Both the position numbers and the translations under genes were made by a program. Shown here in pieces: positions 4,453 to 35,866 of a stretch of 43,104 bases of DNA. The DNA lies in the sequence record PZ445418.1; one strand, given 5' to 3'. Under the pieces are notes generated by a model. The model saw only the letters and a program-made list of their open reading frames with translations. It was not told where the DNA came from and did not search any database. Origin of the DNA: a phage. Each line of letters begins with the position of its first letter. Position 1 is the stretch's first letter.

Positions 4453-5217
4453 TTATCGCGGAATACCGCAAATCTCGTTTAACGTCTTCACGTCCAGTGC
4501 CACCGCCGTGGACTTCGGCTTGTCAGGGTACGGAATGAATTGTTCCACTTCAGGCCACGCCTTGATCAGCTTCTTATCGGTATTGTGCAAATCCAGCACG
4601 CCAGTTACGGTTAGTTTGAACGCGTCATACTTCGCGCGCAAATCGCGGCGGGCCTTGTCGTTACGGTCAAGGCGCTTGCAGAAATCATGGTCCGCCGGGT
4701 AGTCTACGCGACCGCGCGGAAGATATATCGGCAGCGATTTTCCGTCCTCGTCCACTTCGCACACTGAAGCCAGCATAACTTCCTCGTACCCCGGTACGAT
4801 ATCGCCGAGATCGGGAGATAGCTTATTCATATATTTCTCTTCCCAGTATCCGCGGTGCAGGCGGTATCGGAATCCATCGCCGCTCAATGATACGGTGCGA
4901 ACATTACCTCCTGCGTTGATATCGAATCCGGCGCTATAAACGCTGCCGATGCCTTTTGGCCGGTCGGAGTTATAGCTATACGTCGCCTTGTCGGTGTAAA
5001 CGCTAACGCCATACATCTGCGACTGGTTATCGCGGATTTCTGCGATATATGCGCGTAACTCGGCGAACGTGCGAATGCCTTCCGGCATACAGTCCAGCGT
5101 AATGGCGTACGCCAAGTCGCGAGAGTCCATCATGATGGATTTTGCTTCGGTCGCGATTTCATGGTCGCGCAGGATGTTAGCCAGAATCTTGTTTTTAACG
5201 TCTTTTGTCAGTCTCAT
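4453..5217 (-). CDS. hypothetical protein (opposite-strand gene inside head module)
   Basis: 254 aa from internal ATG (MRLTKD) of the 390-aa track ORF; own promoter upstream; no recognisable motif. Confidence 0.55.
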   Translation of the reverse strand: MRLTKDVKNKILANILRDHEIATEAKSIMMDSRDLAYAITLDCMPEGIRTFAELRAYIAEIRDNQSQMYGVSVYTDKATYSYNSDRPKGIGSVYSAGFDINAGGNVRTVSLSGDGFRYRLHRGYWEEKYMNKLSPDLGDIVPGYEEVMLASVCEVDEDGKSLPIYLPRGRVDYPADHDFCKRLDRNDKARRDLRAKYDAFKLTVTGVLDLHNTDKKLIKAWPEVEQFIPYPDKPKSTAVALDVKTLNEICGIPR

Positions 5218-31695: not shown

Positions 31696-32472
31696 TTAAC
31701 GGCGGCGACGTTTGCGTGGTGCTTCGTCTTCGTCGTCGTCCTCATCATCTTCGTCATCGCGTGGCTTACGACGTTTACGAGGTTTCTCGTCTTCGTCATC
31801 GTCATCGCGGCGCTTGGACTTTTTGGACTTGCGCGACTTGTCATCTTCGTCATCGTCATCACGACGTTTTGACTTTTTGGACTTGCGCGGTGCTTCGTCT
31901 TCGTCGTTGTCCAGGTCTTCATCGGAGCAAGAAGACCCGCCACCGCCGAAGGCTTCGCCGTCGTCACGGAAGCGTAAACCCAGCAGTCCAGCACCGAGTC
32001 CCTTGCCGTTGGTATTGTTCCACGCCCAAATATCCAGGGACACATTGCAATAACAACCGGAGTAGATCTCCTGGCCTTCAATTTCGTCGCCTTCTACGGT
32101 CAGACCCTGTTCGGTCTGCTTCTCGCCGAGTGACGTTTGAATGTTTGGCTGCTTGAACGATTTGGCATTGATGTACAACATGCCTTCGAATTCTTCGGTT
32201 ACTTCGTCGCGCTCGTCGCCGTCGCGAACTGCGCATTCCTTAGAATCCTGGGCGTAGTGGCGGTCCATCCACTTATCGGCGTTCTTCTCGGATTTCAGCT
32301 TGTCGGTGAGCACTGCGCGCGCTGCCGCTTCCACTTTGTCCACCTGCGGATCTTCTTTATCAAGAAGAATCACTGCACGGTATGCCGGTTTTTGTCCATC
32401 CTGTTTAGGGGTATCGCGCTCCCAAATTTTAAGGAAACATACGCGCACATTTTTCAGGTTGACTTTAGCCAT
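31696..32472 (-). CDS. ssDNA-binding-like protein (DUF2815-like) with charged tandem-repeat tail
   Basis: ATG at 32472 (MAKVNLKNVRV) with AGGA RBS; FGGGG near C-terminus; tail of repeated DDDDED/KSKKSKRR units. Confidence 0.5.
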   Translation of the reverse strand: MAKVNLKNVRVCFLKIWERDTPKQDGQKPAYRAVILLDKEDPQVDKVEAAARAVLTDKLKSEKNADKWMDRHYAQDSKECAVRDGDERDEVTEEFEGMLYINAKSFKQPNIQTSLGEKQTEQGLTVEGDEIEGQEIYSGCYCNVSLDIWAWNNTNGKGLGAGLLGLRFRDDGEAFGGGGSSCSDEDLDNDEDEAPRKSKKSKRRDDDDEDDKSRKSKKSKRRDDDDEDEKPRKRRKPRDDEDDEDDDEDEAPRKRRRR

Positions 32473-32562
32473 TTTCCAATTCCTCATTTTCACATGTATC
32501 GGGGTTATTGTGAGCCACCCCGTTCGGCTTGGTTGCTAATCTACTTGGTTGCGCCTAAGCGG

Positions 32563-34658: not shown

Positions 34659-34706
34659 TGTCTCTTCCTCTAAAAATAGGCCCGCAGATTAGCGGGCCGG
34701 ATAATA

Positions 34707-35135
34707 TTAGTCTTCCAGTTCGAAATAGGTTTCGACGATTTCTTTCAGATCTTTGTGGAAGTCTTCGACGTCGTCATCTTCCAGCTTGGCGATTGATTTG
34801 ATCTCAAACGCTTCCAGCAGGTCGTCAAATTCGTCGTTCGCGTCGTCGTCGTCACCACCAGCGATAATAGCGGCGTACTGTTTGATCTCATCGCGCATCT
34901 CTGCCAGCGGGTCGGCATCTTTCTTACCTTTTCCTTTCGCCGGAGCTTTTTTACCCTTCGCTGGTTTTTCGTCTTCGGCTTCATCGTCGTCATCTTCTAC
35001 GACTTCTTTTTTGGCCTTAGACGGCTTCTTGTCTTCCTGCTTACCAACGGCAGCGCCAACGGTTTCATAATGCTTAGCGATGGTTTCCAGTGCTACTACG
35101 CCGCGAGTAATCAGGTTTACGATTTGCTCAAACAT
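34707..35135 (-). CDS. acidic/Lys-rich early protein, first gene of leftward operon
   Basis: 143 aa from ATG at 35135 with GGAG RBS; runs DDDDEAEDE, GGDDDDANDEFDD, LEDDDVED plus KPAKGKKAPAKGKGKK; track ORF extends upstream to 35363. Confidence 0.5.
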   Translation of the reverse strand: MFEQIVNLITRGVVALETIAKHYETVGAAVGKQEDKKPSKAKKEVVEDDDDEAEDEKPAKGKKAPAKGKGKKDADPLAEMRDEIKQYAAIIAGGDDDDANDEFDDLLEAFEIKSIAKLEDDDVEDFHKDLKEIVETYFELED

Positions 35136-35331
35136 GGTATATCTCCAATTGGTTAAGTTTAGGTGTCGACCATTAACCTCGTCGGTGGCCTTAACATATT
35201 GCCTGGTTACGCGTTCTCCCGTTCGGGTAGTGGACCAGGTTATATAATCACGGTTGGGAATCCTGACACTTCGATCCGGCCCCTGCGTCGCCCCTCTCCA
35301 GTTTGCGTCCTGCATCCTGTCGACGGAGTGC

Positions 35332-35360
35332 ATATTAGATTGGTTGCAGAAGGGAGTCAA
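35332..35360 (-). promoter_or_regulatory. sigma70-like promoter TTGACT-17-TAATAT (leftward early promoter)
   Basis: good hexamers, 17-bp spacer containing TGCAACCAAT (35339-35348 on plus strand). Confidence 0.5.
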
Positions 35361-35370
35361 CAACTAATTT

Positions 35371-35406
35371 AAAAAAAAAGCGCCGAGGCAAAATGCAACG
35401 GCGCTA
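35371..35406 (-). terminator. intrinsic terminator on minus strand
   Basis: AGCGCCG / CGGCGCT stem followed on minus strand by nine U. Confidence 0.6.
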
Positions 35407-35428
35407 ACCAATAAGAGACAATGAGACG
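35371..35428 (-). ncRNA. candidate small RNA (about 58 nt)
   Basis: minus-strand promoter-like TTGAAA-17-AATAAT (35435-35463) followed within about 60 nt by the terminator above; no ORF. Confidence 0.25.
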
Positions 35429-35476
35429 GGATTTATTATTACACGCGTGCGCGCCCGTTTCAATATTCCAAAGGAG

Positions 35477-35505
35477 TTGACACCCTGCGGTTTTAGGTGT
35501 AGTTT
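35477..35505 (+). promoter_or_regulatory. sigma70-like promoter TTGACA-17-TAGTTT
   Basis: perfect -35, weak -10, upstream of HTH gene. Confidence 0.4.
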
Positions 35506-35536
35506 CATTGGTCATTAACCAACCGGAGACAGAACA

Positions 35537-35866
35537 ATGAACGTAAACGACGCAATCGAAATGTTAACCAAGACTGTTTGCAGTGAGACAAGCCGGTCCT
35601 GGGCGTATACCGATGCCGTGGGGGCGGTGTTATTCGAGGTCGAACGTCTGCGCAGTGTAGAAAAAGAATTACGCGCCAGGCTGGAATTGCTCAACGGTAC
35701 GGCGGCGAGCAAGCTGCAAAAGCACAATGAGGAAATGGAAGAATACAAAAAGCAGGTTATCCGTTTGCGCGCCGAGGGAAAGTCATGGGCGATGATCGCG
35801 GAGTTGACAGGAATTAATCAGAGCACCGTGCGATCCTGGGTACGCAATAACAAAACTTCGAAGTAA
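35537..35866 (+). CDS. helix-turn-helix DNA-binding protein
   Basis: 109 aa, C-terminal GKSWAMIAELTGINQSTVRSWVRN HTH-like segment; GGAGA RBS. Confidence 0.55.
   Translation: MNVNDAIEMLTKTVCSETSRSWAYTDAVGAVLFEVERLRSVEKELRARLELLNGTAASKLQKHNEEMEEYKKQVIRLRAEGKSWAMIAELTGINQSTVRSWVRNNKTSK

Follow-up and report, generated by a model that had tools for sequence, protein, structure and literature searches.

The 43,104-nt genome of a Dhillonvirus-type coliphage (PZ445418.1; this whole stretch is called the window below) carries, within a divergent early control region and on the minus strand, a gene for a highly acidic protein (34707..35135) preceded by a structured leader RNA (35165..35324). The explanation that we favor for the two together, and hold with roughly even confidence, is a structured 5′ leader RNA that acts in cis on the first early transcript, joined to an acidic protein of three modules that works by electrostatic binding. 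An earlier note on this DNA had dwelt on the acidic protein and missed the leader as a conserved structured RNA, and it is the leader that makes this span most interesting. Over 2.2 kb around the acidic gene, identity with some 150 genomes of Dhillonviruses (SM_A2, StarDew, bob, EP23, PaulFeyerabend and others) is 90-95%. Few coliphages are isolated as often as Dhillonviruses and T1-like phages, which serve as standard phages in defense studies (SECphi18, BASEL), yet their early regulation is uncharacterized. An RNA that is found across genera but lacking in some strains offers a directly testable way into the control of early genes or the manipulation of the host.

The leader RNA

The first sign of the element was a block of 155 nt upstream of the ATG that is near-invariant in most Dhillonviruses and replaced by about 17 nt in four of them. 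The differences within the block are compensatory (CCUGG/CCAGG, CCCGG/CCGGG and CCAGG/CCUGG). The RNA measures 160 nt from the 5′ strand of helix P1 (GTCGACAG, 35324..35317) to its 3′ strand (TGGTCGAC, 35172..35165) and consists of seven helices, namely P1, which closes the domain, P2, P3, P4, P5a, P5 and P6. Hairpin P2 has a GGA loop, P3 is a long helix interrupted by two 2x2 internal loops, and P4 is a hairpin with the loop AUUCCCAA, while P5a and P5 form a stacked arm that bears the P6 hairpin with its GNRA-type loop.

Support for this fold comes from 36 distinct leader sequences that fall into six sequence types. Alignment with MAFFT followed by RNAalifold misaligned the variable stems and recovered the fold only partly, and a hand alignment built on conserved anchors, with N as a gap placeholder to hold the columns, was used instead (A5). 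In it, standard pairs occupy 96.2% of cells, compared with 25-42% when the 3′ partners are slid by one to three columns, and the covariation score is 0.413, compared with at most 0.049 for the slid versions; none of 500 shuffles equaled the observed values. Two-sided changes occur in 18 pairs, seven of them in P1, three in P5a, five in P5 and three in P6. G-U pairs are confined to the sense strand, which assigns the structure to the transcript. A role at the DNA level, as an origin or packaging site, was considered and rejected on account of these sense-only G-U pairs and because every copy follows a promoter. In the alignment 79 nucleotide columns are invariant, and the combination of stems saturated with compensatory change and about 75 fixed positions points to an old divergence under strong constraint rather than to recent transfer. 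Constraint of this kind resembles that on aptamers or protein-binding RNAs.

A covariance model of the leader (R1) finds a single match in the window, at 35329..35160 on the minus strand (155 bits, E 7.5e-39), and one copy at each of the other loci. No match occurs in the RNA-minus Dhillonviruses (L006, L008, L009 and L014) or in a distant phage that encodes a homologue of the acidic protein. By sensitive blastn the core is found in other phages, always intergenic and on the coding strand. These carriers are Drexlerviridae of several genera (JK16, tunus, slyngel, swan01, PHB17 and KMI8), to which HeidiAbel_Bas97, sortkaff, Lumpael and Klebsiella phage KA2-1 can be added. Several siphophage lineages beyond Dhillonvirus have the element. 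The core is absent from 5,426 E. coli genomes. Scanning viral, metagenome and genome collections for a 20-base core pattern added further copies; the wider scans of this kind yielded few new variants, together with three matches in Lachnospiraceae coding DNA (L044, L046 and L057), which score only 14.7 bits with the covariance model, over the P4 hairpin, and were dismissed as chance. A full leader RNA with its own promoter also lies at 4907..5071 of a contig labelled as part of a Cereibacter sphaeroides metagenome-assembled genome (L043, QFQS01000013.1). At 42.7 kb this contig is as long as a phage genome, and it may come from an enterobacterial phage mis-binned into an alphaproteobacterial assembly.

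No counterpart was found among described RNAs. Searches against Rfam 15 (4227 families) gave no match at E<=1 in the window region or at four other carrier loci, and no match at the gathering threshold anywhere in the window. A literature search by sequence string did not find the leader, and the text of a published catalogue of structured RNAs from viruses makes no mention of these phages (PMC10690425). The leader thus apparently represents an undescribed and uncatalogued family, a candidate new RNA family.

In all six sequence types P1 begins a few nucleotides past the end of the -35 and -10 boxes, and the leader would therefore form the 5′ end of its transcript. It is followed by an A/C/U-rich linker, a ribosome binding site (RBS) and a start codon some 25-50 nt past a conserved CCGACGAAG motif. 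The open reading frames (ORFs) downstream encode small proteins, with no relation from one phage group to the next. In the six types, no conserved anti-Shine-Dalgarno pairing was seen on inspecting the 5′ flank and the RBS, though no systematic search was made. The RNA-minus Dhillonviruses carry instead a short hairpin at the same 5′ position (weak, not significant), and because some members of the genus manage with this alternative the leader is, as judged from its distribution, an accessory element.

Our best guess is that the leader would be an autonomous 5′ domain, recognized by a factor or ligand, that acts in cis to set the stability or translation of the first early mRNA. The main rival is action in trans, in which a processed or abundant 5′ fragment would titrate a host RNA-binding factor or a defense component, the downstream ORFs being merely passengers of a mobile cassette of promoter plus RNA. 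This would fit the constancy of promoter and RNA ahead of genes that are unrelated across phage groups, and the presence/absence polymorphism, which is typical of accessory functions. It would also fit the GGA motifs that hairpins P2 and P4 carry and a single-stranded GGAGAGGAG stretch, which we take to resemble CsrA- or ribosome-binding motifs. However, neither a terminator nor an obvious processing site was found between the RNA and the ORF, and the retention of start-codon spacing relative to CCGACGAAG suggests coupling in cis. We regard action in trans as somewhat unlikely.

Among known RNAs, the cis-acting domain that we propose is most readily compared with riboswitch aptamers and other structured 5′ leaders. 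The similarities are a size of about 160 nt, closure by P1, junctions of several helices whose joining nucleotides never vary, stems that covary freely, a loop of GNRA type and a location in the 5′ untranslated region just before the RBS; the aptamer-like fold of a riboswitch class, with covarying stems and invariant junctions, is thus present in the leader. In contrast to riboswitches, it has no Rfam match, no expression platform was found, it always stands at the 5′ end of the transcript, and its downstream genes have nothing in common that hints at a ligand. Stabilizing 5′ stem-loops of the ompA type likewise lie at the extreme 5′ end of the mRNA, and the short (weak) hairpin of the RNA-minus relatives could be likened to them, but simple stabilizers need neither some 75 invariant nucleotides nor seven helices.

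Start codon and expression signals of the acidic gene

The acidic ORF is the first downstream of the leftward early promoter, as the earlier note had it. A consensus scan places this sigma-70-like promoter at 35332..35360 on the minus strand (TTGACT at 35360..35355, a 17-nt spacer and TAATAT at 35337..35332), with a T9/A-rich tract immediately upstream. Both hexamers are kept in 19 relatives, with a spacer of 17 or 18 nt, and transcription is predicted to start near 35325/35324, about 190 nt from ATG 35135. The reading frame, 34707..35363 (minus strand), is indeed open beyond this ATG up to a TTG at 35363..35361, from which it would encode 218 aa, and the ATG does possess a good RBS. The note had left the choice between a long protein and a short one behind a leader of about 190 nt. 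The second option is the one borne out by comparison with relatives, in that translation starts at ATG 35135 and yields a 142-aa product behind a non-coding leader of that length.

The coding sequence accordingly extends over 34707..35135 (minus strand), from ATG 35135..35133 to the stop codon TAA at 34709..34707. The same ATGTTTGAGCAAAT start is present in 18 of the 18 relatives fetched, and eight of them have a stop in the upstream frame, 1, 12, 21, 27 or 58 codons before the ATG. Four relatives lack 155 nt of the supposed extension and still retain the gene. The TTG is located upstream of the -35 box, with a strong terminator (35405..35372) just before it, and therefore no predicted transcript would carry it. 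The substitutions in this stretch compensate RNA pairing and are not codon-like, and the profile of the protein family (PHROG 3127) leaves the extension uncovered. Against all this, a true product of 218 aa without any leader could appeal to the 76 codons before the ATG over which the frame stays open in the window and several relatives, and to the long form annotated in some GenBank records, such as StarDew gp47; we find it scarcely credible. GenBank annotation of the gene is in fact inconsistent (522 nt in bob, 612 nt in SM_A2 and 744 nt in StarDew), annotated products spanning 142-247 aa, and fixing the start codon corrects these conflicts.

Between the leader and the coding sequence lies an A/C/U-rich, unstructured linker with the RBS (35136..35164, minus strand), read from the sequence as ACCTAAACTTAACCAATT and GGAG at 35146..35143, 8 nt upstream of the ATG. 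This linker and the GGAG are kept in relatives with and without the leader RNA. The RBS with its spacer, TTGGAGATATACCATG (35133..35149, minus strand), is very similar to the T7 gene 10 RBS, AAGGAGATATACATATG, and because of this likeness very efficient translation of the acidic gene is suggested. Right after the stop codon, the consensus scan finds a hairpin resembling an intrinsic terminator (34671..34698, minus strand; GGCCCGC-TAATCT-GCGGGCC at 34698..34679, then TATTTTT). With a promoter and a terminator to itself and a strong RBS, the span would make a compact early unit with strong expression. As a side observation, the terminator loop is inverted among relatives (TAATCT versus AGATTA; 34679..34698 in the window; L001, L006, L011, L014, L016 and L017) with the stem kept.

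The terminator raises the possibility that the leader is an element for processive antitermination, like HK022 put, serving to read through the end of the acidic gene. Put RNA consists of two stem-loops and is about half the size of the leader. The two have in common that they are structured, promoter-proximal RNAs at the head of phage early operons with terminators further on, here after the first gene. They differ in size, the leader being about twice as large, and in fold, which is multi-junction rather than two stem-loops. In addition, the RNA-minus Dhillonviruses keep the same downstream operon and an identical terminator, which argues against put-like antitermination being necessary. We consider a put-like function quite unlikely.

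The acidic protein and its place among the replication genes

The 142-aa product contains 42 Asp and Glu (29.6%) and 22 Lys and Arg residues, with a net charge of -20 and a pI of 4.4. Asp plus Glu make up 10.6% on average (sd 4.6) across the window's 53 non-overlapping ORFs; the acidic protein exceeds this mean by about 4 sd, and the high acidity seen by the earlier note is confirmed. So is the Lys-rich segment amid the Asp/Glu runs, which spans aa 31-75 and holds 14 Lys/Arg and 14 Asp/Glu residues.

The protein is built of three parts. The first is an amphipathic N-terminal helix (aa 1-27, MFEQIVNLITRGVVALETIAKHYETVG; 35055..35135, minus strand), which is charge-neutral, fixed in length and the best-conserved part of the family, L8, R11, A15, E17 and A20 being conserved in at least 90% of sequences (alignments A1, A6 and A7). 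AlphaFold2 (AF2) models it as a helix over aa 2-26, with a predicted local distance difference test score (pLDDT) of about 45 when 24 sequences were used and 60-66 with 57. The second part is a variable polyampholyte linker (aa 28-75; 34911..35054, minus strand) of net charge 0, predicted to be disordered (AF2 pLDDT <50). In Dhillonviruses the linker is made of a unit of about 30 aa, KKEVVEDDDDDAEDEKPAKSKKAPAKGKA, present once in the window (as KKEVVEDDDDxAEDEKPAKxKKAPAKGKA), twice in most relatives and three times in SM_A2, and almost absent in P0091 and P0098. In SM_A2 the corresponding tandem repeat, as delimited by Tandem Repeats Finder (TRF), is a 90-nt unit in 3.2 copies of 97% identity (L003, 1682..1966). 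Across the family the linker measures 21-94 aa, is rich in Lys/Arg, Asp/Glu and Pro and has a median net charge of -1. The third part is a conserved acidic three-helix bundle (aa 76-142, 67 aa; 34710..34910, minus strand) with a net charge of -19, whose helices at aa 76-93, 97-109 and 120-138 are predicted with a pLDDT of 80-91 in the 24- and 57-sequence runs alike. Family-wide, this domain has about 67 aa and a median net charge of -15. The Asp/Glu run of the linker, EDDDDEAEDE, thus sits in a variable, net-neutral segment of low complexity, and since the unit varies in copy number and is nearly lost in P0091 and P0098, this segment seems dispensable; the conserved acidity, as far as the alignments tell, resides in the folded C-terminal domain. 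As an aside, copy numbers of one, two or three among close relatives give proteins of 142-203 aa, and the 90-nt repeat is marked as a repeat_region in bob (L001, 2802..2829).

The protein matches PHROG 3127 (E 3.2e-47, aa 34-142 against profile positions 70-178 of 178), a phage family without assigned function. A homologue search gave 167 relatives, one of which, from the BASEL phage TheodorHerzl, is 96% identical, and an exhaustive profile search of 1.84 billion cluster representatives gave only 63 matches; the roughly 20 of these 63 that were retrieved and aligned have the same three-part build. Neither the window protein (E<=1) nor 24 diverse members (E<=0.1) had a match above threshold in Pfam, and the family profile matched no sequence in the PDB at E<=10. 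A weak hit to DUF6669 (E 0.047) was below the cut-off, was not repeated among family members and was discarded. Structural matches of the C-terminal domain are generic three-helix bundles only, and those in BFVD are uncharacterized homologues, namely Gp46 of Edwardsiella phage eiAU and proteins of Salmonella phages St162 and MB78. Two possible links to SECphi18 were followed and rejected: Ksap1, the KpAvs2 trigger of this Dhillonvirus, is a 74-aa protein encoded at another locus, and the papers on SECphi18 escape mutants concern SSB, polymerase and portal. In its architecture the acidic protein recalls ribosomal protein L7/L12, in which an N-terminal helical module for oligomerization or docking is joined by a flexible hinge to a small acidic globular C-terminal domain; this is an analogy only, not homology.

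The leftward operon (minus strand) runs from the acidic ORF through two small ORFs (PHROGs 4965 and 9934, both without assigned function) to a DUF2800/PD-(D/E)XK exonuclease, an Enc34-type SSB (a protein that binds single-stranded DNA) and a family A DNA polymerase. The acidic gene was found in every Dhillonvirus examined, and a homologue of 39% identity (BLASTP) is carried on an unrelated 39-kb contig (L042) that keeps the order of the window, i.e. divergent helix-turn-helix (HTH) gene, acidic, small, small, DUF2800/PD-(D/E)XK, Enc34 SSB, PolA. Most anti-defense genes are patchy and accessory. Because of its presence in all Dhillonviruses examined and the synteny on a distant contig, the acidic gene is by the comparative evidence a core member of a replication/recombination module rather than a patchy accessory gene.

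This bears on the kinship with Ocr and ArdA that the earlier note had proposed, according to which the protein would be a DNA mimic that blocks type I restriction-modification (R-M) or BREX right after DNA entry. T7 Ocr (gp0.3) and ArdA are also small, very acidic and all-helical, and the first products of a strong early promoter. Here too the gene comes first after the early promoter, with a strong RBS and its own terminator, the product has a pI of 4.4 and its conserved C-terminal domain carries a net charge of -19. However, the Ocr family in Pfam was matched neither by the window protein (E<=1) nor by 24 members (E<=0.1), no structural match was found to the Ocr fold (an elongated all-helical dimer that mimics bent B-DNA, solved in the PDB), and ArdA was matched in neither sequence nor fold. 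By sequence and predicted structure, then, the acidic protein is not a member of either family; of the check by charge and structure prediction that the note had suggested, the acidity held, but the predicted fold is a three-helix bundle. Ocr and ArdA are elongated dimers much larger than the folded acidic part found here, which has about 65 aa and is joined through a disordered polyampholyte linker to an N-terminal helix that is conserved. The acidic run of the linker is variable, interleaved with Lys blocks and almost lost in some variants, and the gene has a conserved place among replication genes. Finally, the BASEL study reports Dhillonviruses to be comparatively sensitive to type I and type II R-M, unlike Queuovirinae (PMC8594841). 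An Ocr/ArdA-type function is therefore unlikely, and decoy action of the acidic C-terminal domain on another target, in the manner of a DNA mimic, is possible.

The note had also taken the Lys-rich part as a possible sign of a nucleoid-associated protein, an idea that loses force because this segment is the non-conserved part of the protein. DNA binding through a segment like histone H1 could be read from its AKKAPAKGK-type repeats, which resemble H1-like tails, and one family member weakly matches the HC2 histone-like family (E 0.01). The Lys blocks are, however, balanced one-for-one by acidic blocks, leaving the linker with a net charge of 0 (family median -1). The Lys-rich segment ranges from 21 to 94 aa and is almost lost in P0091 and P0098, and the conserved parts are either neutral, like the N-terminal helix, or strongly acidic, like the C-terminal domain. 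Such a role is very unlikely.

Another parallel is with the RecBCD inhibitors lambda Gam and T7 gp5.9, DNA mimics that are likewise small, acidic and helical and encoded near a phage recombination exonuclease (the gene orders are gam-bet-exo in lambda and 5.9-6 in T7). The context is similar in that a PD-(D/E)XK exonuclease and an SSB are encoded in the operon that the acidic gene opens. No homology with Gam or gp5.9 was detected, lambda Gam giving no match in Pfam or the PDB, and the long variable linker has no counterpart in these proteins. The label 'Gam' that appears in some GenBank records belongs to the neighboring HTH gene, not to the acidic gene.

We suggest that the acidic protein would act through protein-protein contacts, largely by electrostatic binding to a basic surface that normally binds nucleic acid, with the N-terminal amphipathic helix probably serving for docking or oligomerization and the linker acting as a disordered, net-neutral Lys/Asp/Glu tether of variable repeat number. 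It would serve the exonuclease/SSB/polymerase module of the phage itself, possibly as a partner of the phage SSB, whose tail has the same kind of charge blocks; another option is a decoy for a host enzyme acting on DNA ends, for example RecBCD, comparable to lambda Gam or T7 gp5.9. A role tied to phage DNA metabolism is proposed because of the core synteny, the likeness to the SSB tail and the reported R-M sensitivity of Dhillonviruses, and on our weighing of these points a place within the replication-recombination module, or a RecBCD-type decoy function, is more likely than an Ocr/ArdA role. A wider picture, which we put forward tentatively, would have the acidic protein and SSB form an electrostatic hub or condensate for replication. 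In this wider picture the leader would be a phage regulatory RNA of a new class, a sensor or decoy linked to a promoter that binds a ligand or protein, is kept under very strong constraint and is set by different siphophage lineages before whichever early gene needs control. Seen as a core and probably abundant early factor, the acidic protein calls for experiments directed at RecBCD and replication partners rather than at restriction.

Several points weigh against the combination of a cis-acting leader and an electrostatic-binding protein. The start of transcription is predicted, not measured. Helices P2, P3 and P4 are invariant apart from G-C/G-U exchanges, so that covariation neither supports nor tests them, the hand alignment behind the pair counts was fitted to the structure, and the folding energy of the single sequence is no better than that of shuffles (z = 0.43). 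An expression platform, whether by pairing with the RBS or by a terminator, was not found, which weakens a classical riboswitch reading. For the protein, AF2 confidence in the N-terminal helix is moderate, the synteny is circumstantial evidence only for its role, and the homologue in Salmonella phage MB78 is named '13.88 kDa late protein' in UniProt, which fits poorly with a role confined to early infection.

Neighboring genes and further sites of the control region

The Enc34-type SSB (31696..32493, minus strand) ends in a C-terminal tail of about 65 aa in which acidic and basic blocks alternate (…DEDEAPRKSKKSKRRDDDDEDDKSRKSKKSKRRDDDD…RKRRRR). A tail of similar make, likewise with alternating blocks, is found on the SSB of the distant phage (L042, 8505..9239), and both tails resemble the linker of the acidic protein in the style of their charge blocks.

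To the right of the control region, on the plus strand, lie the gene of a 109-aa HTH protein (35537..35866) and that of an AAA_25 primase-helicase. Public records name the 109-aa gene 'DNA recombination nuclease inhibitor gamma', 'transposase' or 'resolvase', whereas its only matches are to helix-turn-helix domains, at the C-terminus (HTH_23, E 2e-7), and the Gam label looks like an annotation error propagated between records.

Upstream of the main leftward promoter there is a second promoter-like site on the minus strand (35463..35435; TTGAAA-17-AATAAT with a TG extension), and about 30 nt past it follows the strong intrinsic terminator already mentioned (35405..35372, minus strand; GCGCCG...CGGCGC plus T9, z = -3.2). 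Together they would yield a tiny RNA of about 55 nt, and the stretch 35372..35463 is almost invariant across 19 Dhillonviruses.

The motif ATTGGTTAA, allowing at most one mismatch, occurs seven times in the window, which equals the chance expectation. Four of the seven copies cluster in the 425-bp control region 35148..35572 (at 35148, 35404, 35515 and 35564), and one copy belongs to an inverted repeat, TTGGTTAATGACCAA, adjoining the start of the HTH gene. The ATTGGTTAA sites are candidate operators for the HTH protein.

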